Source of the DNA: Escherichia coli
GTDB taxonomy: Bacteria; Pseudomonadota; Gammaproteobacteria; Enterobacterales; Enterobacteriaceae
DNA length: 64,000 bases
Strand: one strand, 5' to 3'
NCBI RefSeq assembly: GCF_017348835.2
Contig: NZ_CP071375.1
Shown: positions 5,690 to 23,694 of the stretch, piece by piece
How the letters are laid out: each line of letters starts with the position of its first letter
Position numbering within the stretch: position 1 is the stretch's first letter
Notes under the pieces: generated by a model
Seen by the model: only the letters and a program-made list of their open reading frames with translations
What the model was told of the DNA's origin: nothing
Databases searched by the model: none
Position numbers and translations under genes: made by a program

Positions 5690-8600
5690 ATGAGACACTT
5701 TATCTATCAGGACGAAAAATCACATAAATTCTGGGCGGTTGAGCAACAGGATAATGAGCTTCATATTAGATGGGGTAAAGTCGGTACTAACGGGCAAAGT
5801 CAGATAAAAAGTTTTTCAGATGCTGCTGCAGCGGCAAAAGCGGAGCTTAAGCTGATCGCAGAGAAAACGAAAAAAGGCTATGTGGAAAATGCTTCAGCAA
5901 ACGTGCATATCTCCCCCATCACCAAAGCCACTCCTGAAGTTGAAACTTCCCCTGAGAGTAAAAACCAACGCCCGTGGCTGGCTGATGATGCAGTTATTCC
6001 GGTAACTGACGATATTAACCGATTTGCTTTTCCTCATCGCTCTCGCCCCAGAGAGATCAATTATCTGCGCAAAGACGGTGAGATATGGAAGCGTATTGCA
6101 GATAACACCAGGGCATATGATCCCGACAACAATTACCGCTCTTATCCTGAAAACTGGCAGCAGGCTTTTGCTGAGTTACAAAGGCGAATTCTGGATAATC
6201 AACAGACAGGGAGTGCGCAATCTGATGCAGCATTGCTCTGGAGTTTTTGGAACTCTTACTCTGCAGATGAACTGGTCGATGACTTAGTCATTCGCTGTGG
6301 TCTGGAAAGCGCCGTTGAAATCGCCCTTTTTGCCCTTCAACTCAAATATAAACCAGTAAAAGGCGCAGTAACCACCATCATTCCACCTAATCACGAAGCA
6401 GAATCGCTACCTAGTTGGCATCAACGTCTATGTCATCATCTTTCACTCGCTTCAGAAGATGAGTGGCAACGCTGTGTAGATAAAGTACTCACCGCCATTC
6501 CGACGCTATCCCCCGCACGGCAACCTTTTGCGGCGCTACTGCTCCCTGAACGCCCGGATATCGCCCATGCTATAGCTCTACGCTATGCAGACCAAAACGT
6601 CCCGGCGATCACCTGGTTAAGTATGATGGTAAGCGATGATGTTGCCCTGGCCATCCAGGAAATATATGGTTTCCCACCGCTATATAATGATTTCCGCAAA
6701 TATCTGGCTACGTTGCTGGCAAATAATGGAATGCGTGGTGTAAGCCGGATTCTTCTCAAGCTACCTGTCGACTATCCCGTAAAATACACGGACCTTTTCA
6801 CTCACATACACGCCAATGCTGAAGATCTTGTCAAATGGCTATGGAAAACGAATCACCCGGATGCGATTCAAATTCTGATCCTCGGTGTAAATGGCAAGAA
6901 AAAGCACCTGGAATACTTAAGCAAAGCCTGCCAAAAACATCCCGCTGCGGCTATTGCCGCTTATGCTACTTTGCTGGCAATACATGAAAATAATGAGTGG
7001 CGTAAAGCGCTTGTCAAACTGATTACTGCCACGCCAGAGTTAGTATGCGAGGTCATTCCCTGGGTTAATGCTAAGGCGGCAGGCATCTTATCTGAATGTC
7101 GTCCGCTGCCAGTAGCTGAAGAATGTGAATATGCCACTGTGGATATGTTGCCGGAGCTGCTTGTCGCTCCACCGTGGATAATAAATAAGAAAAAGAATGT
7201 CATACCCGTATTTGATTTACCGGTACTTCCCATTCCTGCCGTCACGGATATCACACCAGGAATTACAGAGTTAATCAGTCATACTGACATATCCAGATTC
7301 AGTGAAATCGCGCAATATCAGGCATCACAGCAAACCTTATTTACCGATCTGCCACTAATTGAAAAAGAAAGCTGGGAGACATCTTTCATTCCTTTTACAC
7401 CAGAACAACAAATCCTTTGGCAATTAGGTTTTAATGAATGGCTGCATTGCGAAAATGACTTACATGAAAAAAAATATATACCGCAAAGCGCTGTTGATGC
7501 CTTGTTGCGCTTTGATTTTCCAGCACTAAAAGCTGAGTTTGCGAAATATCACAACAATGCCAACAAAAGCTGGAATCTATCTGCGCTTTGTTACTTACCG
7601 GGACAACAGGCGATCTCATTTCTCAACCAAATAATCATTGAGGAGCGATATTCAGGTGAGAAAGAGATTCTGGCGGTTTTTGGTAGTACGGCCATTCCTG
7701 CGTTTATGACCTGCTTGCAACGAGATCATCAACGCCTGTGGATATTCACCCTTTTTATTGGAGCCAGTGAACTAGCCTTACCAATGGCGCAGCGGTTACA
7801 GAAAAAAATGGGTTACAAGGATGCCGTTAATTGGCTGGCAAATAACCCGCGCCATGCCGCCGCCGGGCTACTGCCTTTGGCGCTGGGCAAACCGTGCCAA
7901 AATCGGGAATATGCCCGCCAGGCACTCCTCCTGCTAGTGAAATTAAACCAGCGAGAAACGATTGAGGAAATCACCCAAGGATATAATCAACCTGATGTTT
8001 TAGCTGCGCTGGCAACATTATTTGATAGCGACCCACTGGAAGAATATCCTGCAAAAATCGCCCCACTGCCCGGCTTTTATCAGTTCCCCTTATGGCGCAG
8101 ACCTCGGCTTAAAAGTAACAACCTGCCTCTGCCAGATGACACTATGCGCCACCTCGGCACAATGTTGAGCTTTCCACGCGACATTACCTCCTACGCTGGG
8201 CTGGCGATCATCAAAGAGACCTTCACCCGCGAATCACTGGCTGACTTTGGCTGGGATCTCTACACGGCATGGACAGAAGCTGGCGCACCCGCAAAAGAGA
8301 ACTGGGCATTTACCTCGCTGGGGATTCTAGGCAATGACGACACCGCGCGTAAACTAACCCCGCTCATCCGCGCCTGGCCGGGTGAATCCCAGCATAAACG
8401 CGCGGTTTACGGGCTGGATGTGTTAGCCAGTATCGGTAGCGACATTGCGCTTATGTTGCTTAATGGCATTGCGCAAAAGATTAAATTCGTTGCATTACAG
8501 GAACATGCCAGCGACAGAATCAATATGGTCGCCGAAAATCGCGGACTGACAATGGCCGAACTGGAAGATCGCCTGGCGCCGGATTTAGGGCTTGATAGCA

Positions 8601-9490
8601 GTGGCTCGCTGATACTGGATTTCGGCCCCCGCAAATTCACCGTTGGTTTTGACGAAACCTTAAAACCTGTAGTGTGCGATGCAAACGGCAAAGTCCTGAA
8701 AGATTTACCTAAGCCAAACCAGAGCGATGATAAAACACTGGCAACTGACGCAGTTAATCTCTTCAAACAGTTGAAAAAAGATGTTCGTGCTATCGCCAGC
8801 CAGCAAATTACCCGTCTGGAACAGGCTATGTGCCAGCGCAGACGCTGGACGGCAGAGCAGTTCCGCCTGTTTCTGGTGGAGCATCCGCTGGTACGTCACT
8901 TAACCCGACGGCTGTTATGGGGAGTATATACTGAGGAAAACACGCTGATTGCCTGCTTCCGGGTCGCAGAAGATAGCACTTACAGCGATGCGCAGGAAGA
9001 GCTATTCACGTTACCAGCAGGAAACATCGGTATTCCGCATGTGCTGGAAATATCCCCTGAATCCGCCGCTGCATTCAGGCAAATTTACGCTGATTACGAA
9101 CTGCTTCCCCCTTTCCAACAGCTCGAGCGAGGTAGCTATCACCTTGCTGATAATGAACGTAATACTCACGAACTGACACGCTGGCAAGGACGGCTTTGCC
9201 AGGCCGGACGCATTGTCGGGCTGGAACGCCGAGGCTGGCAACGTCTGGAAGAAAGCGGCAGCGTTTATGCGATGCGCAAAACAACCCCTCATGGCGATCT
9301 CGAACTTGAAACGGAACCTTTTTCATTAATTTATGGTGAAACGGGGTATGGCGACCAGCTACCGGTTGAAAGCGTAAAAATCACCTCGCCAGATGATCGC
9401 TACGGTAAACAATCCTCACTCACTTTCTCCATGCTCGACGACATCACCGCCAGCGAGCTGATTAACGACATCGAATCACTGTTTGATTAA
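5690..9490 (+). CDS. molR: MolR-family giant protein, copy 1: N-terminal WGR-like module plus conserved C-terminal region (recalled as DUF4132); intact here
   Basis: 1266 aa uninterrupted ORF; N-terminus FIYQDEKSHKFWAVEQQDNELHIRWGKVGTNGQ looks like a WGR domain; C-terminal ~450 aa align with the next two ORFs. Confidence 0.85.
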   Translation: MRHFIYQDEKSHKFWAVEQQDNELHIRWGKVGTNGQSQIKSFSDAAAAAKAELKLIAEKTKKGYVENASANVHISPITKATPEVETSPESKNQRPWLADDAVIPVTDDINRFAFPHRSRPREINYLRKDGEIWKRIADNTRAYDPDNNYRSYPENWQQAFAELQRRILDNQQTGSAQSDAALLWSFWNSYSADELVDDLVIRCGLESAVEIALFALQLKYKPVKGAVTTIIPPNHEAESLPSWHQRLCHHLSLASEDEWQRCVDKVLTAIPTLSPARQPFAALLLPERPDIAHAIALRYADQNVPAITWLSMMVSDDVALAIQEIYGFPPLYNDFRKYLATLLANNGMRGVSRILLKLPVDYPVKYTDLFTHIHANAEDLVKWLWKTNHPDAIQILILGVNGKKKHLEYLSKACQKHPAAAIAAYATLLAIHENNEWRKALVKLITATPELVCEVIPWVNAKAAGILSECRPLPVAEECEYATVDMLPELLVAPPWIINKKKNVIPVFDLPVLPIPAVTDITPGITELISHTDISRFSEIAQYQASQQTLFTDLPLIEKESWETSFIPFTPEQQILWQLGFNEWLHCENDLHEKKYIPQSAVDALLRFDFPALKAEFAKYHNNANKSWNLSALCYLPGQQAISFLNQIIIEERYSGEKEILAVFGSTAIPAFMTCLQRDHQRLWIFTLFIGASELALPMAQRLQKKMGYKDAVNWLANNPRHAAAGLLPLALGKPCQNREYARQALLLLVKLNQRETIEEITQGYNQPDVLAALATLFDSDPLEEYPAKIAPLPGFYQFPLWRRPRLKSNNLPLPDDTMRHLGTMLSFPRDITSYAGLAIIKETFTRESLADFGWDLYTAWTEAGAPAKENWAFTSLGILGNDDTARKLTPLIRAWPGESQHKRAVYGLDVLASIGSDIALMLLNGIAQKIKFVALQEHASDRINMVAENRGLTMAELEDRLAPDLGLDSSGSLILDFGPRKFTVGFDETLKPVVCDANGKVLKDLPKPNQSDDKTLATDAVNLFKQLKKDVRAIASQQITRLEQAMCQRRRWTAEQFRLFLVEHPLVRHLTRRLLWGVYTEENTLIACFRVAEDSTYSDAQEELFTLPAGNIGIPHVLEISPESAAAFRQIYADYELLPPFQQLERGSYHLADNERNTHELTRWQGRLCQAGRIVGLERRGWQRLEESGSVYAMRKTTPHGDLELETEPFSLIYGETGYGDQLPVESVKITSPDDRYGKQSSLTFSMLDDITASELINDIESLFD

Positions 9491-9502
9491 AAGGATTTAA
9501 CA

Positions 9503-12500
9503 ATGAAAACCTATATTTATCAGGACGAAAAATCACATAAATTCTGGGCGGTGGAGCAGCAGAGAAACGAGCTGCATATTACCTGGGGTAAAGTCGGCAC
9601 TAACGGGCAAAGTCAGGTAAAAAGCTTTGCAGATGCTGCGGCGGCGGAAAAAGCGGAACTGAAGCTGATTGCGGAGAAGGTGAAGAAGGGGTATGTGGAG
9701 CAAGTAGACGCTAACGCTCACTCACATGATGCCTCAGCAAAGAAAGTCCTGGTCACAGAGGAAAAAGCCTCAATAAATCACCAGGCAGCAACTAATGGTT
9801 TACCCTGGCTGGCAGATAACGATCCCATTATTCTTCCCCCGAATATTGCCCGCCATGCCCTCAGCCACCGCCTTTGGCCGGGAGAGCCAGTAAAAAAGCC
9901 AACCAAACCCGAGAAACAAAATTTAATTTCCCGATTGGCAAATCGTACTTATCATTATTATAAAAATCTGACTTTCGATTACAGCTCATGCTCTGATGAA
10001 TGGGCTGATGCGATTAGCCAGGCAATCAGCTTAATTAAGGCCCAAAAGACTGAGATACCCGCGCGTACTATGGCGGTACTTACTTTTCTGGAAATATGTT
10101 TTTGTCAGGGCTGGAATGATGAAACCTCACCCGAGTTGCTGGATGAAATTGTAAGCACCTTCGGTATCGAATACGCAACTGAAACTGTCATCTTCTGGTG
10201 GCAAATTGATTTCGATTTTGACTATAAAGATGAACATTTGACTTTCTTTATTAATTATGGAGATAGCAGCAAGGACAGTTATAGAAGGAATAACGACAAA
10301 TTTAGTTTACGTCTGCGTAAACATTTATCACTAGCAGAAGAAGAAGTATGGCAAAATTGCATTGCAAAATTACTCGTTGCGTTACCAGATATATCACTCT
10401 ATCGCCAACCGTTAATTGCCATTTTAATGCCAGAAATACCCGAAGTGGCCCATGAGATCGTACATCGTTTACACCAGGTCGCAGATGTTCCACAACTTGA
10501 AATGTTGAAACTGGTAGCGACAGATCCATTCACGCTCGAAATACTGGAGAACTATCAATACATTGATGTATTTAACACCTATGGTGCCAGTTGGTCAGCT
10601 ACGGTATTACGGGAGCAAGGTATAGCGGCACTGGCTCGCCTGGCTCCCTATGCTGAAGAAGATAATTGCGGTGACGTACTGAAATGTATTAATCATCCGT
10701 TGGCCATTACGGCACTCATCGAAGCCGCCGATACTAATAAACGCTGTTATGAACGACTAATAAAAAGTGCCGAAAATTTTCCTTCTGCAACGATAGTGGC
10801 ATTAGCCGAAGCATTGGTAAAAAAAGATGATAAACGCAAACATATGTTGCTGGTTTCATTACTTAATGCAAATCCTTTATTGGTCGAAAAATTAGTCATC
10901 GGATTATCGTCGCAAGCGGCAAATTTATTGCAACAATGTCAGCAATTGCTGAATAGTCGCAATGAAGATTTTGCAAACTCAGAAATTCTACCAATGGTAC
11001 TAGTCTCGCCGCCCTGGGAAACTCAAAATAAAAATAACGACAACAGTCCTGTGGGTAAATACCCGGCGAAAATCCCCCCTTTGCCGTTGTTTTATCAACC
11101 TCCATTATGGACTCGCCCGAAACTCAAAAATAGCAGCAAGGTACTGCCAGATAGCGCCCTCCTCCACCTCGGTGAAATGCTCCGCTTCCCTCAGGAAGAG
11201 GCTCTGTATCCGGGATTATTGCAGGTGAAAGATGCCTGTACCGCCGACTCACTGGCTGAATTTGCCTGGGATCTGTTTACCGCCTGGCTGACTGCGGGCG
11301 CACCGTCGAAAGAGAGTTGGGCGTTCACTGCGTTAGGCGTTCTTGGTAACGATGACACCGCTCGCAAACTGACGCCATTAATCCGCGCCTGGCCTGGTGA
11401 ATCCCAGCATAAACGCGCCACCGTCGGGCTTGATATCCTCGCCGCTATCGGTAGTGATATCGCCCTGATGCAGCTTAACGGCATTGCTCAGAAACTGAAA
11501 TTCAAAGCTTTACAGGAGCGGGCGAAAGAGAAAATTGCCGACATTGCTGAAAGCCGCGAACTCACGGTGGCGGAGCTTGAAGATCGGTTAGCACCAGATC
11601 TCGGTCTGGATGATAACGGTTCGTTGCTGCTGGATTTCGGCTCACGCCAGTTCACCGTCAGCTTTGATGAAACCTTAAAACCGTTTGTGCGTGATGTTTC
11701 TGGCAGCCGTCTGAAAGACCTGCCCAAACCAAACAAAAGCGATGATGAATCACAGGCGAACGATGCTGTTAACCGCTACAAACTGCTGAAAAAAGATGCG
11801 CGTACCGTCGCCGCCCAGCAGGTAGCAAGGCTGGAATCCGCCATGTGCCTGCGTCGCCGCTGGTCACCGGAAAACTTTCAGCTCTTCCTGGTTGAGCATC
11901 CGCTGGTTCGCCACTTAACCCGCCGTCTGATTTGGGGCGTTTATAGCGCCGAAAACCAGCTGCAGGCTTGCTTTCGCGTAGCGGAAGATAACAGCTACAG
12001 CACCGCTGACGATGATCTTTTCACCCTGCCGGAAGGCGATATCTCTATTGGTATTCCTCACGTTCTGGAAATATCACCGACGGATGCTGCCGCCTTTGGT
12101 CAGCTTTTTGCCGACTACGAACTGTTACCACCGTTCCGCCAGCTTGACCGTAACAGTTACGCCCTGACAGAAGCCGAGCGCAACGCCAGCGAACTGACCC
12201 GCTGGGCAGGCAGAAAATGCCCGAGCGGTCGGGTAATGGGGCTGGCGAATAAAGGCTGGATAAAGGGCGAACCACAGGATGGAGGCTGGATCGGCTGGAT
12301 GATCAAACCTCTGGGCCGCTGGTCGTTAATCATGGAAATCGATGAAGGCTTTGCAGTGGGTATGTCACCAGCCGAACTTAGCGCTGAGCAGCTCTTAAGC
12401 AAGCTGTGGCTATGGGAAGGCAAAGCGGAAAGCTATGGCTGGGGGAGTAATTCAACACAGGAAGCGCAGCTCTCCGTACTCGATGCCATCACCGCCAGCG

Positions 12501-12535
12501 AGCTAATTAACGATATTGAAGCCCTGTTTGAATAA
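9503..12535 (+). CDS. MolR-family paralog, copy 2: WGR-like N-terminus plus conserved C-terminal region
   Basis: 1010 aa ORF starting 13 nt after copy 1; N-terminal 65 aa nearly identical to copy 1, with a 34 nt identical DNA run at 5705-5738 and 9518-9551; C-terminus ends ...ITASELINDIEALFE like copy 1. Confidence 0.85.
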   Translation: MKTYIYQDEKSHKFWAVEQQRNELHITWGKVGTNGQSQVKSFADAAAAEKAELKLIAEKVKKGYVEQVDANAHSHDASAKKVLVTEEKASINHQAATNGLPWLADNDPIILPPNIARHALSHRLWPGEPVKKPTKPEKQNLISRLANRTYHYYKNLTFDYSSCSDEWADAISQAISLIKAQKTEIPARTMAVLTFLEICFCQGWNDETSPELLDEIVSTFGIEYATETVIFWWQIDFDFDYKDEHLTFFINYGDSSKDSYRRNNDKFSLRLRKHLSLAEEEVWQNCIAKLLVALPDISLYRQPLIAILMPEIPEVAHEIVHRLHQVADVPQLEMLKLVATDPFTLEILENYQYIDVFNTYGASWSATVLREQGIAALARLAPYAEEDNCGDVLKCINHPLAITALIEAADTNKRCYERLIKSAENFPSATIVALAEALVKKDDKRKHMLLVSLLNANPLLVEKLVIGLSSQAANLLQQCQQLLNSRNEDFANSEILPMVLVSPPWETQNKNNDNSPVGKYPAKIPPLPLFYQPPLWTRPKLKNSSKVLPDSALLHLGEMLRFPQEEALYPGLLQVKDACTADSLAEFAWDLFTAWLTAGAPSKESWAFTALGVLGNDDTARKLTPLIRAWPGESQHKRATVGLDILAAIGSDIALMQLNGIAQKLKFKALQERAKEKIADIAESRELTVAELEDRLAPDLGLDDNGSLLLDFGSRQFTVSFDETLKPFVRDVSGSRLKDLPKPNKSDDESQANDAVNRYKLLKKDARTVAAQQVARLESAMCLRRRWSPENFQLFLVEHPLVRHLTRRLIWGVYSAENQLQACFRVAEDNSYSTADDDLFTLPEGDISIGIPHVLEISPTDAAAFGQLFADYELLPPFRQLDRNSYALTEAERNASELTRWAGRKCPSGRVMGLANKGWIKGEPQDGGWIGWMIKPLGRWSLIMEIDEGFAVGMSPAELSAEQLLSKLWLWEGKAESYGWGSNSTQEAQLSVLDAITASELINDIEALFE

Positions 12536-12544
12536 GGAAAGAGC

Positions 12545-15500
12545 ATGGACAAGGAATTACCGTGGCTGGCTGATAACGCCCAACTGGAACTGAAATATAA
12601 AAAGGGTAAAACACCACTCAGCCATCGCAATTGGCCGGGCGAACCAGTGCCTGTTATCACTGAAAGCATCATTCAGACACTGGGTGATGAATTGCTACAA
12701 AAAGCTGAGAAGAAAAAAAACATTGTCTGGCGTTATGAAAATTTTTCACTGGAGTGGCAGTCCGCCATCACGCAGGCCATCAACTTGATCGGCGAACACA
12801 AACCCTCAATCCCGGCCCGGACAATGGCGGCGCTAGCCTGTATCGCGCAAAATGACAGCCAACAGTTGCTCGACGAAATCGTCCAACAAGAGGGGCTGGA
12901 ATATGCGACTGAGGTGGTGATTGCACGCCAGTTTATTGCGCGGTGTTATGAGAGTGATCCTCTGGTAGTGACATTGCAGTATCAGGACGAGGATTATGGC
13001 TATGGTTATCGCTCAGAAACCTATAACGAATTCGATCTCCGACTGCGTAAGCATCTCTCTCTGGCAGAGGAAAGCTGCTGGCAGCGTTGCGCCGACAAAC
13101 TCATTGCCGCACTACCAGGAATAACCAAAGTTCGCCGCCCTTTTATTGCGCTGATCCTCCCGGAAAAACCAGAAATAGCCAATGAGTTGGTAGGCCTTGA
13201 ATGCCCGCGAACTCATTTTCATTCTAAGGAGTGGTTAAAAGTTGTTGCTAATGACCCCACAGCGGTGAGAAAACTCGAACACTACTGGAGCCAGGATATA
13301 TTTAGCGATCGAGAAGCCAGCTACATGTCGCATGAAAACCACTTCGGCTACGCGGCCTGCGCCTCCCTTTTGCGCGAACAAGGACTGGCAGCCGTTCCGC
13401 GCCTGGCAATGTATGCTCATAAAGAAGATTGCGGCAGTCTGCTGGTACAAATTAACCATCCGCAAGTCATCCGCACCTTGCTGTTAGTTGCTGATAAAAA
13501 CAAACCCAGCCTGCAACGTGTGGCTAAATACAGTAAAAACTTCCCCCATGCGACGCTCGCCGCACTGGCAGAACTGCTGGCGTTAAAAGAACCACCAGCC
13601 CGCCCTGGTTATCCAATCATCGAAGACAAAAAGCTGCCTGCACAGCAAAAAGCTCGAGATGAATACTGGCGTACGCTGTTACAAACGCTGATGGCATCGC
13701 AGCCACAACTGGCAGCAGAAGTGATGCCGTGGTTAAGTACTCAAGCCAGGGCAGTGCTGAAGAGTTATTTATCGGCACTGCCAAAACCGGTTATTGATGG
13801 CACCGATAACAGCAATCTGCCTGAAATCCTCGTTTCACCACCGTGGCGTAGTAAGAAAAAAATGACAGCTCCACGTCTTGATTTGGCACGGCTCGAATTA
13901 ACTCCGCAAGTTTACTGGCAACCAGGCGAACGAGAGAGGCTTGCCGCCACTGAGCCTGCCCGTTATTTCAGCACGGAATCTCTTGCGGAACGCATGGAAC
14001 AAAAAAGTGGACGAGTTGTATTACAGGAACTGGGTTTTGGGGATGATGTATGGCTGTTTTTGAATTATATACTCCCCGGAAAACTGGATGCTGCACGCAA
14101 TTCACTCATTGTTGAGTGGCATTACTACCAGGGGCGGGTTGAAGAGATCCTGAATGGCTGGAACTCCCCGGAAGCACAATTAGCAGAACAGGCGCTTCGC
14201 AGCGGTCACGTAGAAGCGTTAATTAACATATGGGAAAATGACAACTACTCACGTTATCGTCCGGAAAAGAGTGTCTGGAACCTGTATTTATTGGCACAGT
14301 TGCCGCGTGAGATGGCTTTGACCTTCTGGCTGCGTATCAATGAGAAAAAACATCTGTTCGCGGGTGAGGACTATTTTCTCAGTATCCTCGGATTGGATGC
14401 GCTACCAGGTCTGCTGTTGGCTTTTTCACATCGTCCAAAAGAAACATTTCCGTTAATTTTAAATTTTGGCGCAACAGAACTGGCCCTGCCTGTTGCCCGC
14501 GTCTGGCGACGTTTCGCGGTGCAGCGTGATCTGGCTCGCCAGTGGATTTTACAATGGCCGGAACATACGGCTACTGCACTTATCCCTCTTGTCTTCACCA
14601 AATCTAGCGATAAAAGCGAAGCTGCATTACTTGCCCTGCGTTTACTTTACGAACATGGGCATGGCGAATTGCTACAAACTGTAGCCAATCGTTGGCAGCG
14701 TACAGATCTATGGCCTGCCCTGGAACAATTACTTAAACAGAGTCCAATAGAGATTTACCCGGCACGCATTCCAAAAGCCCCTGATTTCTGGCATCCGCAA
14801 ATGTGGTCCAGGCCGCGCCTTATCACTAATAATCAAACTGTTACCGATGACGCTCTGGAAATTATCGGCGAAATGCTGCGCTTTACCCAGGGGGGACGTT
14901 TTTATAGCTGGCTGGAACAACTGAAAACGTTCTGCCAGCCACAAACGCTGGCAGCTTTTGCCTGGGATCTCTTCACTGCGTGGCAACAAGCTGGTGCCCC
15001 CGCAAAAGACAACTGGGCATTTCTGGCGTTAAGTCTCTTTGGTGACGAAAGCACGGCACGGGATCTGACGACACAGATCCTCGCCTGGCCACAAGAAGGC
15101 AAATCTGCCCGTGCTGTCAGCGGCCTGAACATCCTTACCCTGATGAATAATGATATGGCGCTGATACAGCTGCATCATATATCGCAACGGGCTAAATCCC
15201 GCCCCTTACGTGATAACGCGGCGGAATTTCTTCAGGTGGTCGCAGAAAATCGCGGGCTAAGCCAGGAAGAGCTAGCGGACAGATTAGTCCCAACCCTGGG
15301 CCTTGATGATCCGCAGGCGTTGAGTTTTGATTTTGGTCCCCGGCAGTTTACCGTTCGCTTCGATGAAAACCTCAACCCGGTTATCTTTGATCAGCAAAAC
15401 GTTCGCCAGAAAAGCGTTCCCCGGTTGCGCGCCGATGACGATCAACTGAAAGCGCCCGAGGCACTGGCCCGACTAAAAGGGCTAAAAAAAGATGCCACTC

Positions 15501-16237: not shown

Positions 16238-16555
16238 ATGATCGTGCAAAAAGAGCTGGTTGCTATTTACGATTATGAGGTCCCTGTACCTGAAGATCCG
16301 TTTTCCTTCAGACTTGAGATCCATAAATGCTCTGAATTATTTACAGGTTCCGTCTATCGACTGGAGCGATTCCGGCTACATCCAACATTTCGTCAACGTG
16401 ATCGAGAAGATGCTGACCCGCTAATAAATGATGCGTTGATTTATATAAGAGATGAGTGTATTGATGAGCGGAAATTACGAGGTGAATCACCTGAAACTGT
16501 AATAGCAATTTTTAATCGTGAACTACAGAATATATTCAACCAAGAAATAGAATAA
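16238..16555 (+). CDS. yehK: Small cytoplasmic protein of unknown function
   Basis: 105 aa ORF downstream of yehI, preceded by a stem-loop (CGGGCAGT-GATGCAA-CTGCCCG at 16186-16208). Confidence 0.75.
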   Translation: MIVQKELVAIYDYEVPVPEDPFSFRLEIHKCSELFTGSVYRLERFRLHPTFRQRDREDADPLINDALIYIRDECIDERKLRGESPETVIAIFNRELQNIFNQEIE

Positions 16556-16645: not shown

Positions 16646-16664
16646 ATGCGTTTCAATTTGCCCG

Positions 16665-16754
16665 TTACTTCAACAAATCAATCAACCGTAACAGAGCTAC
16701 TAATAGCTCCAGTACAGCAATGAGCACGGTTAACTTTTGTGTCAGCGTGTCCAT
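16665..16754 (-). CDS. zorO: 29 aa hydrophobic type I toxin peptide (ZorO-like)
   Basis: Reverse-strand ORF MDTLTQKLTVLIAVLELLVALLRLIDLLK, one predicted TM helix, AGGAG RBS 7 nt upstream, ~175 nt 5' UTR from a TATAAT at 16941-16936; UTR carries a 20-mer complementary to the divergent sRNA. Confidence 0.65.
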   Translation of the reverse strand: MDTLTQKLTVLIAVLELLVALLRLIDLLK

Positions 16755-16935: not shown

Positions 16936-16986
16936 ATTATAAATCTCATTATCTTAATTGCAACGGGGTCCAGCCGTGGTTATAAT
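16936..16986. promoter_or_regulatory. Back-to-back sigma70 promoters for the toxin mRNA (-) and antitoxin sRNA (+), sharing a palindromic -35
   Basis: Plus strand: TTGCAA (16958-16963), 17 nt spacer, TATAAT (16981-16986). Minus strand: the same palindromic TTGCAA, 16 nt spacer, TATAAT (complement of 16936-16941). Confidence 0.55.
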
Positions 16987-16992
16987 TCGTTC

Positions 16993-17077
16993 GTTGGAAC
17001 ACGATGTTGCACAGGCTGTGGTGTTAGGCCTGAAAATAGTAAATAAAAGAACCTGCCTCACCAGCAGGTTTTTTTAT
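16993..17077 (+). ncRNA. orzO: Candidate antitoxin small RNA (OrzO-like), ~85 nt
   Basis: Predicted start ~7 nt after the consensus -10; 5' end GTTGGAACACGATGTTGCAC repeats 16827-16846 (GTTGGACCACGATGTTGCAC, one mismatch) inside the toxin 5' UTR; ends at terminator ACCTGC-CTCACCA-GCAGGTTTTTTT (17050-17077). Confidence 0.55.
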
Positions 17078-17186
17078 TTACTGTGATCTGCTTTCCAGAT
17101 ATTTTTCGCTCAAACAACTAATGCGCCAAACATTTATTGCGCGTAAAATATCGTTTATTTCATTAATACATTTCAGGGATGAATAT

Positions 17187-18275
17187 ATGTCACCGCAGAA
17201 TAATCATCTGCAGCGTCCGCCTGCTGCTGTGTTATACGCCGATGAACTGGCAAAATTAAAACAAAATGATACCGCACCTTGCCCGCCCGGTTGGCAGTTA
17301 AGTTTGCCTGCGGCCCGTGCTTTTATCCTTGGCGATAGCGCGCAAAATATTAGCCGTAAAGTGGTGATTAGTCCCTCCGCTGTCGAACGTATGTTAGTCA
17401 CTCTTGCCACCGGACGCGGTTTGATGTTGGTGGGGGAACCTGGCAGCGCAAAATCTCTCCTGTCTGAATTACTGGCAACCGCTATTAGCGGCGATGCCGG
17501 GTTAACCATCCAGGGCGGCGCATCTACTACCGAAGATCAAATCAAGTACGGCTTGAACTACGCCCTGCTTATCAATCATGGTCCATCAACGGAAGCGCTG
17601 GTCCCTGCCCCGCTTTACCAGGGAATGCGCGACGGCAAAATCGTCCGTTTTGAAGAGATAACGCGTACACCGCTGGAAGTGCAAGACTGTCTGTTAGGTA
17701 TGCTTTCTGACAGGGTGATGACGGTGCCGGAACTCACTGGTGAAGCCAGTCAGCTCTATGCGCGAGAAGGCTTTAATATTATTGCCACTGCCAATACCCG
17801 CGATCGCGGCGTCAATGAAATGAGTGCTGCGCTAAAGCGTCGCTTCGATTTTGAAACTGTCTTTCCGATTATGGATTTCGTCCAGGAGCTGGAGCTTGTC
17901 GCCAGTGCTTCGGCGCGTTTGCTGGCCCATAGCGGTATTCCGCATAAAGTGCCTGACGCGGTACTGGAGTTACTGGTCCGCACCTTCCGCGATCTGCGTG
18001 CCAACGGCGAAAAGAAAACGTCAATGGATACACTAACAGCGATTATGTCCACCGCTGAAGCCGTGAACGTGGCCCACGCTGTGGGCGTCCGCGCCTGGTT
18101 TTTAGCGAATCGCGCAGGTGAGCCAGCCGATCTGGTGGACTGTATTGCCGGAACCATCGTCAAAGATAACGAAGAAGATCGCGCTCGTCTGCGCCGTTAC
18201 TTCGAACAGCGAGTCGCCATACATAAAGAAGCTCACTGGCAGGCTTATTATCAAGCCCGCCACCGCCTGCCGTGA
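17187..18275 (+). CDS. yehL: MoxR-type AAA+ ATPase
   Basis: Walker A LVGEPGSAKS; Walker-B-like IVRFEEITR (Glu where Asp is usual); sensor-1-like IIATANTRD; RRF arginine finger; start taken at MSPQNNH inside ORF 17121..18275. Confidence 0.85.
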   Translation: MSPQNNHLQRPPAAVLYADELAKLKQNDTAPCPPGWQLSLPAARAFILGDSAQNISRKVVISPSAVERMLVTLATGRGLMLVGEPGSAKSLLSELLATAISGDAGLTIQGGASTTEDQIKYGLNYALLINHGPSTEALVPAPLYQGMRDGKIVRFEEITRTPLEVQDCLLGMLSDRVMTVPELTGEASQLYAREGFNIIATANTRDRGVNEMSAALKRRFDFETVFPIMDFVQELELVASASARLLAHSGIPHKVPDAVLELLVRTFRDLRANGEKKTSMDTLTAIMSTAEAVNVAHAVGVRAWFLANRAGEPADLVDCIAGTIVKDNEEDRARLRRYFEQRVAIHKEAHWQAYYQARHRLP

Positions 18276-18285: not shown

Positions 18286-20565
18286 ATGAGCGAGCCGTTA
18301 ATTGTCGGCATCCGGCATCATAGCCCGGCCTGCGCCCGGCTGGTGAAATCGTTAATCGAAAGCCAGCGGCCACGATACGTGTTGATTGAAGGCCCGGCTG
18401 ATTTTAATGACCGGGTATACGAACTGTTTTTAGCCCACCAGCTTCCGGTAGCTATTTACAGTTATTGCCAGTATCAGGACGGTACGGCCCCCGGGCGCGG
18501 TGCCTGGACGCCATTTGCTGAATTTTCGCCGGAGTGGCAGGCGCTACAAGCCGCACGTCGTATTCAGGCACAAACTTACTTCATCGATTTGCCTTGCTGG
18601 GCACAGAGTGAAGAAGAGGACGATTCGCCTGATACGCAAGATGAAAGCCAGGCCTTACTGCTGCGTGCCACCCGCATGGATAACAGCGATACCCTGTGGG
18701 ATCACTTGTTCGAAGATGAAAGCCAGCAAACTGCATTACCCTCTGCGCTGGCGCACTATTTTGCCCAACTGCGGGGCGACTCCCCCGGAGATGCACTCAA
18801 TCGTCAGCGCGAAGCCTTTATGGCCCGCTGGATTGGATGGGCGATGCAGCAAAATAATGGCGACGTGTTAGTTGTCTGCGGTGGCTGGCACGCTCCGGCA
18901 CTGGCAAAAATGTGGCGCGAATGTCCGCAGGAAATTAACACGCCAGAATTGCCGTCGCTGGCAGATGCCGTTACAGGTTGTTATCTCACACCCTACAGTG
19001 AAAAGCGCCTTGATGTGCTGGCAGGATACCTTTCCGGAATGCCTGCCCCGGTCTGGCAAAGCTGGTGCTGGCAGTGGGGCTTACAGCAGGCGGGAGAACA
19101 ACTGCTAAAAACGGTTCTTACCCGTTTGCGCCAACACCACTTGCCTGCTTCGACCGCGGATATGGCTGCCGCTCATCTGCATGCGATGGCGCTGGCACAG
19201 TTGCGCGGACATAAACTACCGTTACGCATTGACTGGCTGGATGCCATAGCAGGCTCGCTGATTAAAGAAGCCCTGAACGCGCCGTTGCCGTGGAGCTATC
19301 GCGGCGTTATTCATCCCGACACCGATCCGATTCTGCTAACGTTGATAGACACATTAGCGGGTGACGGATTCGGTAAACTTGCCCCTTCTACGCCACAACC
19401 GCCTCTGCCAAAAGATGTCACCTGCGAACTGGAACGTACCGCAATCTCTCTTCCGGCGGAGCTTACCTTAAATCGCTTTAACCCCAATGGACTAGCGCAA
19501 AGTCAGGTGTTACATCGGCTGGCAATACTGGAGATCCCAGGGATTGTACGCCAGCAGGGAAGCACACTGACACTTGCAGGCAACGGTGAAGAACGCTGGA
19601 AATTAACCCGCCCGCTTAGCCAGCATGCGGCATTGATTGAGGCCGCCTGCTTTGGTGCCACACTCCAGGAAGCCGCACGCCATAAATTAGAAGCCGATAT
19701 GCTGGACGCGGGTGGAATCGGCAGTATCACCACATGTCTTAGCCAGGCGGCGTTAGCGGGTCTGGCGTCCTTCAGTCAACAATTACTGGAGCAACTCACA
19801 TTATTAATCGCCCAGGAAAATCAATTTGCCGAAATGGGCCAGGCGCTGGAAGTGCTATATGCCTTATGGCGGCTGGATGAAATTAGCGGTATGCAAGGCG
19901 CGCAGATATTACAAACGACGTTATGCGCGGCTATCGATCGCACGCTCTGGCTGTGTGAATCCAACGGCAAACCGGATGAAAAGGAGTTTCACGCTCACCT
20001 GCATAGCTGGCAGGCGCTTTGCCATATCCTGCGCGATCTACATAGCGGCGTTAATTTACCCGGCGTTTCTCTTTCTGCGGCGGTAGCCTTACTGGAGCGA
20101 CGCAGTCAGGCAATCCATGCCCCGGCGCTGGATCGCGGCGCGGCTCTTGGCGCACTGATGCGTCTGGAACATCCCAACGCCAGTGCCGAAGCGGCGCTGA
20201 CGATGCTGGCACAGTTTTTCCCGGCACAATCCGGCGAAGCGCTGCACGGTTTGCTGGCGCTGGCCCGCCATCAACTGGCCTGTCAGCCGGCATTTATCGC
20301 CGGTTTCAGCAGTCATTTAAATCAACTAAGTGATGCCGATTTTATCAATGCCCTGCCCGATTTACGCGCGGCGATGGCCTGGCTACCGCCACGAGAACGC
20401 GGGACGCTGGCGCATCAGGTGCTTGAACATTATCAACTGGCGCAACTTCCCGTTTCGGCGCTGCAAATGCCGTTGCATTGCCCACCACAAGCCATTGCAC
20501 ATCATCAACAACTCGAACAGCAGGCACTGGCATCGCTGCAAAACTGGGGAGTTTTCCATGTCTGA
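18286..20565 (+). CDS. yehM: Large protein of unknown function in the MoxR/VWA operon
   Basis: 759 aa from MSEPLIVGIRHHSP, starting 11 nt after the yehL stop; ORF-track start 18118 overlaps yehL and is judged an over-extension. No motif I can name. Confidence 0.8.
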   Translation: MSEPLIVGIRHHSPACARLVKSLIESQRPRYVLIEGPADFNDRVYELFLAHQLPVAIYSYCQYQDGTAPGRGAWTPFAEFSPEWQALQAARRIQAQTYFIDLPCWAQSEEEDDSPDTQDESQALLLRATRMDNSDTLWDHLFEDESQQTALPSALAHYFAQLRGDSPGDALNRQREAFMARWIGWAMQQNNGDVLVVCGGWHAPALAKMWRECPQEINTPELPSLADAVTGCYLTPYSEKRLDVLAGYLSGMPAPVWQSWCWQWGLQQAGEQLLKTVLTRLRQHHLPASTADMAAAHLHAMALAQLRGHKLPLRIDWLDAIAGSLIKEALNAPLPWSYRGVIHPDTDPILLTLIDTLAGDGFGKLAPSTPQPPLPKDVTCELERTAISLPAELTLNRFNPNGLAQSQVLHRLAILEIPGIVRQQGSTLTLAGNGEERWKLTRPLSQHAALIEAACFGATLQEAARHKLEADMLDAGGIGSITTCLSQAALAGLASFSQQLLEQLTLLIAQENQFAEMGQALEVLYALWRLDEISGMQGAQILQTTLCAAIDRTLWLCESNGKPDEKEFHAHLHSWQALCHILRDLHSGVNLPGVSLSAAVALLERRSQAIHAPALDRGAALGALMRLEHPNASAEAALTMLAQFFPAQSGEALHGLLALARHQLACQPAFIAGFSSHLNQLSDADFINALPDLRAAMAWLPPRERGTLAHQVLEHYQLAQLPVSALQMPLHCPPQAIAHHQQLEQQALASLQNWGVFHV

Positions 20566-21694
20566 ACTGAACGATCTTCTGACCACCCGTGAGCTACAAC
20601 GCTGGCGATTAATTCTTGGCGAAGCGGCAGAAACGACGCTTTGTGGGCTGGATGACAACGCCCGGCAGATAGACCACGCGCTGGAATGGCTGTATGGGCG
20701 CGATCCTGAACGGCTCCAGCGTGGTGAACGCTCCGGTGGATTAGGTGGCTCAAATCTCACCACCCCTGAGTGGATCAACAGTATTCACACGCTGTTTCCG
20801 CAACTGGTGATTGAGCGGCTGGAAAGCGATGCCGTACTGCGCTATGGCATTGAAGATGTGGTGACGAATCTCGACGTGCTGGAACGTATGCAGCCTTCTG
20901 AAAGCCTGCTACGCGCCGTTTTGCACACCAAACATCTGATGAACCCCGAAGTACTGGCTGCCGCCCGCCGGATAGTGCGCCAGGTTGTTGAAGAAATTAT
21001 GGCTCGACTGGCAAAGGAAGTTCGTCAGGCTTTTTCTGGTGTCCGCGATCGCCGTCGCCGCTCATTTATTCCACTGGCGCGAAACTTTGATTTCAAAAGT
21101 ACTCTTCGCGCCAACCTGCAACACTGGCACCCGCAACACGGCAAGTTGTATATCGAATCCCCCCGCTTTAACAGCCGCATTAAACGCCAAAGCGAACAAT
21201 GGCAACTGGTCTTACTGGTTGATCAAAGCGGCTCGATGGTCGATTCGGTGATCCACTCTGCGGTGATGGCGGCCTGTTTATGGCAGTTACCCGGCATTCG
21301 TACCCATCTGGTGGCGTTTGACACAAGCGTCGTTGATCTCACGGCAGACGTTGCCGATCCGGTAGAGTTATTAATGAAAGTGCAATTAGGCGGCGGAACC
21401 AATATCGCCAGTGCCGTGGAATATGGTCGGCAACTTATTGAACAACCAGCGAAAAGCGTCATTATCCTCGTGAGCGATTTTTACGAAGGGGGTTCATCAT
21501 CATTACTGACGCATCAGGTGAAAAAGTGTGTCCAGAGCGGCATCAAAGTGCTGGGACTGGCGGCGCTCGATAGCACCGCAACACCTTGCTATGACCACGA
21601 TACGGCCCAGGCGCTGGTAAATGTCGGCGCACAAATAGCCGCCATGACGCCGGGCGAGCTGGCATCATGGCTTGCGGAGAATCTTCAGTCATGA
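20558..21694 (+). CDS. yehP: von Willebrand factor A (VWA) domain protein with MIDAS motif
   Basis: 378 aa from MSELNDLL; start overlaps the yehM stop (ATGTCTGA); MIDAS-like LVLLVDQSGSM (DxSxS) at ~21221-21238; ORF-track start 20330 is an over-extension. Confidence 0.85.
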   Translation: MSELNDLLTTRELQRWRLILGEAAETTLCGLDDNARQIDHALEWLYGRDPERLQRGERSGGLGGSNLTTPEWINSIHTLFPQLVIERLESDAVLRYGIEDVVTNLDVLERMQPSESLLRAVLHTKHLMNPEVLAAARRIVRQVVEEIMARLAKEVRQAFSGVRDRRRRSFIPLARNFDFKSTLRANLQHWHPQHGKLYIESPRFNSRIKRQSEQWQLVLLVDQSGSMVDSVIHSAVMAACLWQLPGIRTHLVAFDTSVVDLTADVADPVELLMKVQLGGGTNIASAVEYGRQLIEQPAKSVIILVSDFYEGGSSSLLTHQVKKCVQSGIKVLGLAALDSTATPCYDHDTAQALVNVGAQIAAMTPGELASWLAENLQS

Positions 21695-23694
21695 ATTCAC
21701 TACGTCCGGAATTATTAGAACTGACACCGCAGGCACTGACGGCGTTAAGCAATGCCGGTTTTGTTAAGCGCAGCCTTAAGGAACTGGAAAATGGCAACGT
21801 CCCGGAAATCAGCCATGAGAACGGCGCTTTAATCGCCACCTTCAGTGACGGTGTCCGTACCCAGCTGGCGAACGGTCAGGCACTGAAAGAGGCTCAGTGC
21901 AGCTGCGGGGCCAGCGGCATGTGCCGTCATCGCGTGATGCTGGTGTTAAGTTATCAACGACTTTGTGCCACCGTCCAGCCCACGGAAAAAGAAGAAGAGT
22001 GGGATCCGGCAATCTGGCTGGAAGAACTGGCTACCCTGCCCGATGCCACCCGCAAACGCGCACAGGCGCTGGTCGCTAAAGGCATCACCATTGAGTTGTT
22101 CTGTACGCCGGGCGAAATTCCCTCTGCCCGCTTACCGATGAGCGATGTGCGTTTTTATTCCCGTAGCAGCATTCGTTTCGCCCGTTGTGATTGTATTGAA
22201 GGCACACTTTGCGAACATGTCGTACTGGCAGTACAGGCCTTTGTCCAGGCAAAAGCGCAGCAAGCGGAATTGACTCATTTAATCTGGCAGATGCGCAGCG
22301 AACACGTCACATCATCTGACGATCCGTTTGCCAGCGAAGAAGGCAACGCGTGTCGTCAATATGTTCAGCAATTAAGCCAGGCATTATGGCTTGGCGGCAT
22401 CAGCCAGCCGCTCATCCATTACGAGGCAGCATTCAACCGCGCATTGCAGGCGGCAGAGGCCTGCAACTGGCGCTGGATGAGTGAGTCACTACGACAGCTA
22501 CGGGCAAGCGTTGATGCCTTCCATGCCCGCGCCAGCCACTATCATGCCGGAGAATGCTTACGTCAGCTTGCGGCATTAAACAGTCGATTAAATTGCGCAC
22601 AAGAGATGGCGCGCCGCGACAGTATCAGTGAAGTTCCTCCCATGCCGTGGCGAACGGTGGTTGGCGCAGGCATTGCTGGCGAAGCAAAGCTTGATCATTT
22701 GCGGCTGGTGTCGCTAGGTATGCGTTGCTGGCAGGATATTGAGCAGTATGGTTTACGCATCTGGTTTACCGATCCCGACACCGGCAGTATTTTGCACCTT
22801 TCGCGCAGTTGGCCGCGAAGTGAACAGGAAAACTCACCGGCAGCGACGCGTCGGCTATTTAGTTTTCAGGCAGGCGCGCTGGCGGGTGGGCAAATTGTTT
22901 CACAAGCAGCAAAACGCAGTGCCGATGGCGAGCTGCTGTTAGCTACCCGCAACCGCTTGAGTAGTGTTATTCCACTGTCGCCAGACGCCTGGAAAATGCT
23001 GAGTACGCCGCTGCGCCAGCCGGGCATTGTGGCTTTGCGGGAATATTTACGCCAGCGTCCCCCCTCCTGCATACGGCCTCTTAATCAGGTCGATAACTTA
23101 TTTATTCTGCCGGTCGCTGAGTGTATTTCGCTCGGTTGGGATAGCAGCCGCCAGACGCTGGATGCGCAGGTAATCAGCGGCGAAGGTGAAGATAATCTGC
23201 TGACGTTATCACTGCCAGCCTCAGCCAGCGCGCCTTATGCCGTTGAACGCATGGCGGCGCTTTTGCAACAAACAGACGACCCCGTGTGTCTGGTTTCTGG
23301 CTTTGTCAGTTTTGTTGATGGGCAATTGACACTGGAACCACAGGTAATGATGACAAAGACTCGAGCCTGGGCGCTGGACGCAGAAACTGCGCCTGTGGTG
23401 GCATCACTACCTTCTGCCAGCGTTCTGCCTGTGCCGTCTACTGCTCATCAGTTGCTGATGCGCTGCCAGGCATTACTTATTCAACTGCTCCATAACGGCT
23501 GGCGCTATCAGGAACAGAGTGCTATTGGTCAGGCAGAGTTGCTGGCGAATGACCTCACCGCGGTGGGTTTTTATCGGCTGGCACATATGTTGGGACAATT
23601 TCGTAATACAGAAAGCGAGGCATGGGTAGAAGCAATGAATAACGGTGTTTTGCTGTGCGAACAATTATTCCCCATGCTTCAGCAACAAGGATGA
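21691..23694 (+). CDS. yehQ: Protein with two SWIM-type zinc-finger motifs
   Basis: Start ATG overlaps the yehP stop (ATGA); CxC...CxH motifs QCSCGASGMCRHRVM (~21898-21945) and CDCIEGTLCEHVV (~22185-22220). Confidence 0.85.
   Translation: MNSLRPELLELTPQALTALSNAGFVKRSLKELENGNVPEISHENGALIATFSDGVRTQLANGQALKEAQCSCGASGMCRHRVMLVLSYQRLCATVQPTEKEEEWDPAIWLEELATLPDATRKRAQALVAKGITIELFCTPGEIPSARLPMSDVRFYSRSSIRFARCDCIEGTLCEHVVLAVQAFVQAKAQQAELTHLIWQMRSEHVTSSDDPFASEEGNACRQYVQQLSQALWLGGISQPLIHYEAAFNRALQAAEACNWRWMSESLRQLRASVDAFHARASHYHAGECLRQLAALNSRLNCAQEMARRDSISEVPPMPWRTVVGAGIAGEAKLDHLRLVSLGMRCWQDIEQYGLRIWFTDPDTGSILHLSRSWPRSEQENSPAATRRLFSFQAGALAGGQIVSQAAKRSADGELLLATRNRLSSVIPLSPDAWKMLSTPLRQPGIVALREYLRQRPPSCIRPLNQVDNLFILPVAECISLGWDSSRQTLDAQVISGEGEDNLLTLSLPASASAPYAVERMAALLQQTDDPVCLVSGFVSFVDGQLTLEPQVMMTKTRAWALDAETAPVVASLPSASVLPVPSTAHQLLMRCQALLIQLLHNGWRYQEQSAIGQAELLANDLTAVGFYRLAHMLGQFRNTESEAWVEAMNNGVLLCEQLFPMLQQQG

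Follow-up and report, generated by a model that had tools for sequence, protein, structure and literature searches.

The closest described relatives of the locus analyzed here are the pairs RavA-ViaA, CbbQ-CbbO, NorQ-NorD, and CoxD-CoxE, with which it has in common an AAA_5 MoxR ATPase with intact Walker motifs encoded next to a VWA protein whose MIDAS is complete; such MoxR-VWA pairs mature specific complexes (PMC3893208). The Snider and Houry classification of MoxR proteins (cited in PMC3893208) has a YehL subfamily with YehL as its type member, and in the literature found no function is reported for this subfamily. Another comparator is Midasin/Rea1, a ribosome-assembly AAA+ protein of eukaryotes with its MIDAS at the C-terminus, whose AAA modules (E 1e-9) are, together with MoxR 2r44 and McrB, the closest sequence relatives of YehL among solved structures. 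A MoxR-vWA pair inside a patchily distributed multi-gene cassette is also the common feature with the vWA-MoxR “ternary” conflict systems, reportedly described by Kaur, Burroughs, Iyer, and Aravind in 2020. In E. coli, yehLMPQ, yehI, and molR all count among the uncharacterised genes. We found no description of a link between the giant proteins encoded here and yehLMPQ in the searchable literature, nor, in the literature searched, any mention of MoxR together with both SWIM and WGR.

The window, a stretch of 64,000 nucleotides, runs from metG to yehR on the E. coli chromosome. The first-pass annotation had placed giants with a WGR domain and a set of MoxR/VWA/SWIM genes on one strand, and our check of the open reading frames confirmed all those described, on the plus strand and at the coordinates in Table 1. 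The annotation of the 100% identical chromosome of E. coli PE164 lists two DUF4132 proteins, yehI, yehK, and yehLMPQ. The designation as WGR giants is right for giants 1 and 2 and wrong for YehI, which carries DUF4132 only. The repeat elements that had been mentioned are, between positions 5000 and 24500, only paralogous segments of the three giants; neither REP-type nor inverted repeats were found in that interval.

Table 1. Features of the giant-yehLMPQ locus, in positions of the window.
Feature	Position	Strand	Length (aa)	Description
LexA (SOS) box	5663..5682	+		AACTGGATAAAATTACAGGG; 7-26 nt upstream of the giant 1 ATG
Giant 1 (MolR-like)	5690..9490	+	1266	WGR, variable helical region, conserved C-terminal half including DUF4132
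Giant 2	9503..12535	+	1010	WGR, then disordered linker
Giant 3 (YehI)	12545..16177	+	1210	DUF4132 at aa 954-1138, WGR absent
yehK	16238..16555	+	105	Small ORF, Escherichia only
zorO	16665..16754	-	29	Hydrophobic type I toxin MDTLTQKLTVLIAVLELLVALLRLIDLLK; lineage-specific insertion
OrzO antitoxin sRNA	17000..17075	+		Promoter-like site 16958-16986, terminator
yehL	17187..18275	+	362	MoxR-family AAA+ ATPase, YehL subfamily
yehM	18286..20565	+	759	DUF5682
yehP	20558..21694	+	378	VWA with complete MIDAS; 8-nt overlap with the end of yehM
yehQ	21691..23694	+	667	Two SWIM-type zinc fingers; 4-nt overlap with the end of yehP

The giants and yehLMPQ are adjacent far beyond chance. A DUF4132 giant adjoins L-M-P-Q in 74 of the 77 informative loci from other species, which belong to Enterobacterales, Burkholderiales, Lysobacterales, Neisseriales, Myxococcota, and Actinomycetota; the adjacency is also found on records from Streptomyces, Bacillus mycoides, Rhizobiaceae, Iodobacter, and Proteus, and the linkage covers at least four phyla (Proteobacteria, Myxococcota, Actinomycetota, and Bacillota). 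In the plasmid collection, all 24 records that match both YehM and a giant have them side by side, as do four of the five informative contexts among sampled family representatives. With D standing for the giant, three gene orders occur, D-L-M-P-Q, L-M-P-Q-D, and L-M-D-P-Q, with one motor and 1-4 giants per locus. The gap between giant and yehL is mostly 4-130 nt, and stop and start codons overlap in some cassettes, including those with the giant between yehM and yehP. Where contig ends allow, yehL and yehP co-occur in the surveyed loci, except in two (L059 and L065) that retain only L and M. No other neighbor is conserved, each remaining flanking family being present in at most 11 of 80 loci, and the flanks of these 80 loci contain no conserved metabolic gene beside the cassette, whose distribution is patchy and partly plasmid-borne. 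The recurrent adjacency across species supports the suggestion that the WGR genes and the AAA+/VWA/SWIM genes act together, and the mostly independent occurrence of MolR-like genes and yehLMPQ operons, which the first-pass annotation had set as the observation against it, is not what these loci display.

The genes that lie between the two halves in E. coli do not share this conservation. Homologues of yehK are present only in three Escherichia loci (L005-L007), and the gene is outside the conserved cassette. A toxin-antitoxin module does exist in the neighborhood, as had been noted, with OrzO scoring 99.9 bits (E 7e-16) on Rfam RF02083 (OrzO-P), whose gathering score is 60, and zorO-orzO located between yehI and yehL as described by Fozo et al. 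2010 (PMC2887945). It is inserted between yehK and yehL, in Escherichia only, and interrupts the ancestral operon; it is no component of the system.

All three giants match DUF4132 (Pfam PF13569). In giant 2, Pfam assigns residues 7-69 to WGR (E 2e-17) and residues 734-919 to DUF4132 (E 9e-52); a variable alpha/beta region with HEAT-like repeats (aa ~100-500) is followed by the conserved C-terminal half (aa ~500-1010), inside which DUF4132 lies. The WGR-bearing giants have the fold of ~70-80 residues with its W-G-R motif, homologous to the WGR of PARP1/3, and about a quarter of giant homologues lack it. The invariant columns of the giants are all within the C-terminal 420 residues. Between E. 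coli strains, the N-terminal part of giant 2 is 44-61% identical as against 93-96% for the C-terminal part, and only 1643 of 5426 E. coli genomes have the variable region of giant 1, in most cases with 80-90% nucleotide identity; across 4928 E. coli genomes the identity of yehLMPQ is 95-99%. Mean column identity is 66% for YehL, 63% for YehP, 37-60% for YehM, 39% for YehQ, and 30% for the giants. The giants also vary in copy number and are pseudogenes in many E. coli strains. Those with WGR are pseudogenes in both K-12 and O157:H7, and experimental work therefore needs a strain with an intact giant array. The old name of “molybdate regulator” is unsupported by sequence. The locus also has practical relevance, since in a dominant sublineage of ST131 a blaCTX-M-15 transposon has inserted into the chromosome at the DUF4132 region (PMC9334617).

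Of the other four proteins, YehL and YehP have their Walker and MIDAS motifs intact. E. coli K-12 has just two MoxR ATPases, and YehL is one of them. It belongs to Pfam AAA_5 and shows no variation among 20 homologues in Walker A (GEPGTAKS), Walker B (E156-E157), or R218-R219. Some YehL homologues match Pfam bpMoxR weakly. YehP, encoded two genes downstream, belongs to Pfam VWA_CoxE and VWA_2, and the five MIDAS residues (D222-x-S224-x-S226, T281, and D307) are all invariant in 23 sequences. In YehM, an N-terminal alpha/beta domain (~aa 1-250) of ChaN/TraB/EreA-like fold precedes roughly 500 residues of C-terminal helical repeats; the haem-binding ChaN is the top structural match, and the likeness is purely structural, DUF5682 being the only Pfam match and no sequence-level match to ChaN or TraB being found there. 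The invariant motifs of YehM (GxRH, E35, R175-E176, and GGYH202) may resemble the catalytic signature of the ChaN/TraB/EreA/TIKI domains. The SWIM match of YehQ in Pfam is marginal (E 1e-3), but two conserved CxCx5CxH motifs are present, with C70, C72, C78, and H80 invariant in the first one and C166, C168, C174, and H176 at least 90% conserved in the second. Natural DUF5682-VWA fusion proteins exist, and YehM and YehP are for this reason expected to be in physical contact.

The LexA box, which in this locus precedes the first giant only, has its CTGG-N8-ACAG core at 5665-5680 and matches the consensus at 13 of 20 positions; molR is listed among the genes of E. coli known to carry an SOS box (PMC6590174). 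In E. coli, the giants appear to be under LexA and yehLMPQ under H-NS, which amounts to separate regulation. The radiation response of Deinococcus induces WGR and DUF4132 genes, and depletion of DdrO derepresses DRA0166 (DUF4132) and DR2173 (WGR).

We consider it highly likely that the giants and yehLMPQ constitute one functional unit, and they very probably cooperate as one ATP-driven machine. The ancestral form would have been a single operon in the order WGR-HEAT-DUF4132 giant, YehL, YehM, YehP, and YehQ; in E. coli, the insertion of yehK and zorO-orzO would have split it later, and the giant would have been triplicated. The core, composed of YehL as a predicted hexameric ATPase, YehP as a MIDAS adaptor, YehM, and YehQ, could form a remodelling motor like midasin or CbbQO, and the pairing of an AAA ring with a MIDAS domain points to a mechanical action of the “grab and pull” kind. 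On balance, the giants probably act as adaptors or sensors, interchangeable and fast-evolving, whose conserved C-terminal half, DUF4132 included, would dock on the core and whose WGR head and hypervariable helical region may recognise a target associated with nucleic acid. The ChaN/TraB/EreA-like domain of YehM would contribute a hydrolytic or ligand-binding activity. The likeliest role of such a machine would be surveillance of DNA that is damaged or invading, together with its bound proteins. As a whole, a five-component MoxR-MIDAS motor with giant adaptors that watches over DNA in trouble is the explanation we favor, with a probability of about 0.5.

The part of this reading that concerns surveillance or conflict is tentative. 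A conflict-related character is suggested by the hypervariability of the giants and by the patchy, plasmid-borne distribution; the E. coli locus itself is near-core, at a fixed chromosomal site outside any classic defence island, and no family of the PADLOC-DB 2.0 defence HMMs matched any of the eight proteins at E <= 0.01. Somewhat more doubtful is the stronger version, in which the cassette would be an unrecognised genome-surveillance or immune system whose giants, sensing foreign or damaged DNA-protein assemblies in an allele-specific manner, hand their target to the motor. A split midasin-like MoxR-MIDAS motor would then be coupled to YehM as a TIKI/EreA-like hydrolase and to the double-SWIM protein, and, if true, this would be a bacterial PARP-type WGR sensor that works without ADP-ribosylation.

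The same components could also make up a dedicated SOS machine for DNA-damage repair or tolerance with no role in phage or plasmid conflict, which we judge unlikely. Its WGR giants would bind breaks or nicks as the PARP WGR does and recruit the MoxR-VWA motor and the YehM hydrolase, and trapped proteins would be stripped or cleaved off the damaged DNA, in analogy to p97/SPRTN-type removal of DNA-protein crosslinks. The LexA box, the published SOS-box list, the homology to the WGR of PARP1/3, the response of the two Deinococcus genes to DdrO depletion, and the SWIM fingers of YehQ all agree with this, but among the surveyed loci SOS-type boxes upstream of the cassette are confined to Escherichia, Klebsiella, and Intestinirhabdus, and a quarter or so of the giants have no WGR. 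The low allele identity within a species, the copy-number variation, and the many pseudogenes would be unexpected in a housekeeping repair factor, and the patchy, partly plasmid-borne distribution argues in the same direction.

Less probable again is a MoxR-VWA system of the classical maturation or chelatase-like kind, in which YehL and YehP would insert a cofactor into a client or remodel it, the giant would be this client or a subunit that holds the substrate, as in BchI/BchD/BchH or CobS/CobT/CobN, and YehM would be a ligand-binding partner resembling ChaN. MoxR-VWA pairs have a known role in maturation, and a single AAA_5 ATPase combined with a VWA protein and a protein of 1000-1450 aa recalls the class I chelatases; YehP matches a cobaltochelatase subunit model weakly, a PHROG family matched by YehL bears the label “porphyrin biosynthesis”, and ChaN, the top structural match of YehM, binds haem. 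The likeness is nevertheless architectural, given that neither Pfam nor the PDB sequences reveal any similarity of the giants to CobN or BchH; a conserved metabolic neighbor is absent, and WGR, SWIM, and hypervariable alleles are foreign to cofactor insertion. As for adjacency without common function, in which independent genes would keep company as, for example, hitch-hikers on one mobile segment, some features of the locus are what it would leave: the E. coli halves, regulated separately, are ~1 kb apart with yehK, zorO-orzO, and terminators between them, and IS1 deletions can remove either one alone. The giant link is moreover specific to one clade, some DUF4132 genes are solitary, and remote DUF5682 systems of the SWIM-DUF5691-AAA-DUF5682-VWA and AAA-[DUF5682-VWA]-SWIM types have no giant. 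Linkage maintained over at least four phyla and three gene orders, overlapping coding ends where a giant sits between yehM and yehP, and the change of all other neighbors make this explanation very improbable.

The five-part cassette brings eight orphan annotations together in one system that can be tested, in which the giants are the variable and probably specificity-determining part. The MIDAS, the Walker motifs, H11, E35, and H202 of YehM, the SWIM cysteines, and the WGR motif are offered as residues for mutation. Should the WGR giants indeed be sensors of DNA lesions or of invading DNA, they would represent a new coupling of a PARP-type sensor to an AAA+ motor.

Compared with the known MoxR/VWA pairs, the cassette adds three obligatory partners (the DUF5682 protein, the double-SWIM protein, and the WGR/DUF4132 giant) and lacks a conserved gene for a client enzyme. 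Unlike those of Midasin/Rea1, its modules are separate polypeptides, and some lineages join the MIDAS to DUF5682 and not to the ATPase. For the WGR domain, the comparators are the DNA-break-sensing WGR of PARP1/2/3 and Bacteroides fragilis Q64V53 (PDB 2ra8); in contrast to PARP1/2/3, the giants have no ADP-ribosyltransferase domain, and their WGR, whose DNA binding is putative, is followed by helical repeats and DUF4132. The fold relatives of YehM are ChaN, TraB-PrgY-GumN, erythromycin esterase, and the TIKI type, as well as HopBA1, RRSP, and PMT C1, and it differs from the ChaN/TraB/EreA/TIKI domains in the fusion to a helical-repeat region and in having no Pfam sequence match to them. With respect to the vWA-MoxR “ternary” systems, giant 2, YehI, YehQ, and residues 1-260 of YehM yielded neither VMAP nor effector-associated domains, and what the two have in common is the MoxR-vWA pair within a patchily distributed cassette.

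All the ORFs that the first-pass annotation had named between 5690 and 23694 were confirmed on the plus strand, and the features of the region are compiled in the table. The RefSeq gene order is metG, two genes for DUF4132 proteins, yehI, yehK, yehL, yehM, yehP, yehQ and yehR. The segment shares 100% identity with the corresponding part of the E. coli PE164 chromosome and was matched in 5,425 of 5,426 complete E. coli genomes. Its three large DUF4132 proteins, hereafter giants, had been described together as WGR proteins; this holds for giants 1 and 2 but not for YehI, where DUF4132 is the only domain. YehL keeps its Walker A and Walker B motifs and its arginine residues in all the homologues examined, the MIDAS motif of YehP is complete, and an alignment of 19 homologues presents two conserved CxCx5CxH motifs in YehQ. 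For yehP, a published study reported a +1 ribosomal frameshift site, predicted by the program FSscan and confirmed with a reporter and mass spectrometry (PMC2790909).

Features of the giant and yehLMPQ region, with coordinates as positions in the window
Feature	Position	Strand	Description
LexA box	5663-5682		AACTGGATAAAATTACAGGG; 7-26 nt upstream of giant 1
Giant 1	5690-9490	+	1266 aa; WGR and DUF4132
Giant 2	9503-12535	+	1010 aa; WGR and DUF4132
YehI (giant 3)	12545-16177	+	1210 aa; DUF4132 only
zorO	16665-16754	-	Type I toxin, 29 aa
OrzO RNA	17000-17075		Antitoxin partner of zorO
YehL		+	AAA_5 (MoxR-type) ATPase
YehM		+	DUF5682
YehP	20558-21694	+	VWA_CoxE
YehQ		+	Pfam SWIM match, marginal

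The toxin-antitoxin module noticed in this neighbourhood is the type I pair zorO and OrzO, located between yehK and yehL, a place where Fozo et al. reported it in most E. coli, K-12 excepted. The pair is single-copy within 16556-17186, with divergent promoter-like sites at 16936-16986, and its insertion breaks up what other taxa keep as one operon. Repeat elements, which had also been claimed for the region, do exist, but they consist solely of the paralogous segments that the three giants share.

The linkage of the giants with yehLMPQ was analyzed by scanning an alignment of YehM homologues against one genome per species (100,044 species), which gave 289 YehM relatives. The best 80 of these 289 loci were kept with flanks of 10 kb, and giants were searched for in them with an iterative HMM over all ORFs. 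When the association proposed from one neighbourhood was profiled across bacteria in this way, a giant was found to adjoin L-M-P-Q (YehL, YehM, YehP and YehQ) in 74 of 77 loci whose flanks were long enough; the exceptions are two degenerate loci with L and M only and one contig that ends within Q. Among these best 80 loci, the giant lies upstream in 66, downstream in 5 and on both sides in 3, and its spacing to yehL, on the same strand, is mostly 4-130 nt. The loci come from Enterobacterales, Burkholderiales, Lysobacterales, Iodobacter/Chitinibacter and a deltaproteobacterium, and also from Myxococcota, Mycobacterium, Actinophytocola and a Propionibacteriaceae MAG. A sixth conserved neighbour was sought in the 80 loci and none was found. 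The remaining flanking families track lineage synteny and, since each of them occurs in at most 11 of the 80 loci, we take the giant and the four yeh genes as the conserved unit.

The same unit appears in other collections, with the genes in more than one order. A plasmid collection, which includes some mislabelled chromosomes, contains 38 records matched by YehM and 32 matched by giant 2, with both within about 4 kb in 24 records. With D standing for the giant, the order is D-L-M-P-Q on a linear plasmid of Streptomyces, on a plasmid of Bacillus mycoides and in Proteus. A conjugative Sinorhizobium plasmid has L-M-D-P-Q, where coding ends overlap, and Burkholderia has L-M-P-Q-D. Six representatives were sampled from the listed matches in a 50%-identity protein library, and four of the five informative contexts have an adjacent giant. 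The DUF5682 family comprises about 5,500 representatives in 1.84 billion clusters.

The link is not universal. Four distant DUF5682 systems that we inspected, on Rhizobium etli, Deinococcus taeanensis, Hymenobacter and Methylosinus plasmids (loci L085-L088), have the order SWIM-DUF5691-AAA-DUF5682-VWA without a giant. DUF5691 was considered as a divergent DUF4132 or as part of YehQ, and both options were rejected because hhalign shows no relation. The Hymenobacter variant has one DUF5691-annotated protein of about 1,000 aa that probably holds the SWIM part as well, and the Methylosinus variant is surrounded by IS elements, toxin-antitoxin genes and an Imm26 immunity gene. Solitary DUF4132 genes were also found, remote ones in Acetobacter and Chondrinema, MolR-like ones in Rhodococcus and, in Embleya, one with a frameshift. 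From the giant-less systems and the solitary genes, it follows that L, M and P together with a SWIM protein form the core, and that in the YehLMPQ-type clade the giant is a further, tightly linked component.

Several divergent lineages possess natural DUF5682-VWA fusions of about 1,170-1,220 aa (proteins P0216, P0237, P0253 and P0254; loci L105 and L106), in operons of the order AAA_5-[DUF5682-VWA]-SWIM; in L105 there is no DUF4132 gene within 9 kb. These fusions argue for physical contact between M and P. Another three fused products (P0001, P0003 and P0010) were set aside as likely assembly or gene-calling artefacts because they are single-sequence clusters with 94-98% identity to E. coli YehM.

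Within E. coli, yehLMPQ is near-core, with at least 80% covered in 5,202 of 5,426 genomes and an identity of 95-99% in 4,928 records. The three-giant array reaches at least 80% coverage in only 936 of the 5,426 genomes, and most have two giants. The variable region of giant 2 (1.2 kb) is full-length in 409 genomes, and that of giant 1 was found in 1,643, mostly at 80-90% nucleotide identity. Between strains, the N-terminal part of the giant 2 protein is 44-61% identical and its C-terminal 500 residues 93-96%; the corresponding values are 78-88% versus 91-94% for giant 1 and 85-96% versus 95-98% for YehI. Across phyla, all the invariant giant columns lie within the C-terminal 420 residues. The variable N-terminal parts are AT-rich (40.8% GC at 10001-11000 in giant 2 and 45.0% at 7001-8000 in giant 1), and the conserved C-terminal parts of both have about 52-53% GC, a mosaic that is consistent with cassette-like replacement. 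The base composition of the whole locus gave no clear foreign-DNA signature; a markedly AT-rich stretch (36-40% GC) was observed at 1-2000, in the yeh fimbrial genes upstream of apbC and metG.

In O157:H7 and in a K-12 derivative, the WGR giants have become pseudogenes through internal stop codons or frameshifts; IS1 deletions have removed the array alone or yehLMPQ alone in single strains. Decay of the giant array (5690-16177) was observed often (loci L098, L101, L102 and L103). In a dominant ST131 sublineage, a blaCTX-M-15 transposon has been reported in this region (PMC9334617).

As for regulation, giant 1 is preceded by a LexA box, and molR is among the E. coli genes listed with a known SOS box (PMC6590174). 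Outside Escherichia, comparable boxes were found in Klebsiella and Intestinirhabdus only, and a search in other phyla for Cheo-type, actinobacterial and alphaproteobacterial patterns gave no SOS boxes. The recurrent 'TTCTGGGA..CAG' matches were rejected as operators, being located within the WGR coding sequence. The DdrO radiation-response regulon of Deinococcus includes one DUF4132 gene and one WGR gene (PMC8533742). In hns/stpA mutants, derepression of both yehL and yehM has been reported, along with H-NS binding to the intergenic region (PMC3686432).

The giants, YehK, YehM, YehP and YehQ match PHROG families over the families' full length with near identity and very high scores (phrog_20839, 36602, 28101, 36295, 30700, 33984, 31592 and 29006). 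We rejected these matches as a sign of phage origin, since the families appear to derive from a stretch of Escherichia chromosome that was wrongly called prophage; two of them, of 509 and 243 aa, together reproduce a frameshifted yehM like that of locus L007. Phage genomes gave a single match, the AAA-DUF5682-VWA genes on one unverified faecal contig. This putatively viral record (MT835988.1, locus L104, 14 kb, 'UNVERIFIED: Bacteriophage sp.') begins with those genes in their distant variant.

Because the linkage is conserved, in three gene orders and with no other neighbour conserved, the giant and yehLMPQ very likely form a single functional unit, in line with the initial proposal that they act together; the rival reading, for which the solitary DUF4132 genes and giant-less systems have to be considered, is that they are unrelated neighbours. 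Within such a unit, the giants would serve a MoxR-MIDAS motor as exchangeable subunits, either adaptors or sensors. This fits with each locus having a single motor and between one and four giants, with a conservation that falls from L and P to M, then Q and then the giants, with the conserved C-terminal half and hypervariable N-terminal part of the giants, and with the WGR domain present on most of them (68 of 90).

Regarding the biological role of the cassette, which we infer, DNA lesions are suggested by WGR and by SOS control, and here the rival is a pure repair machine; conflict with mobile elements is suggested by hypervariability, by a patchy distribution that extends to plasmids and by frequent decay. 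None of the proteins of the locus matched the PADLOC defence models. Another rival is a chelatase-like maturation system. NCBIfam gave weak or partial matches only, among them YehP to a cobaltochelatase subunit, YehL to GvpN/MadB/McrB, and a match to the WGR portion of a Leptospira protein. In the predicted model of giant 2 (pLDDT 88), the WGR domain is followed by a disordered linker and an alpha/beta segment; next come HEAT-like repeats and, at the C-terminus, another alpha/beta module. The model matches many HEAT-repeat proteins as well.

Sequence and profile searches of YehM, YehQ and YehP against the PDB gave nothing useful, and Pfam found DUF5682 and nothing else in YehM residues 1-260. 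In the openly readable literature, we found no description of the function of DUF5682, DUF5691 or yehLMPQ, nor of a MoxR-VWA pair linked to both WGR and SWIM proteins. The giant-yehLMPQ neighbourhood is already implicit in public annotation. A recognised MoxR subfamily without known function has YehL as its type member (PMC3893208), and the closest solved sequence relatives of YehL are the AAA modules of midasin.
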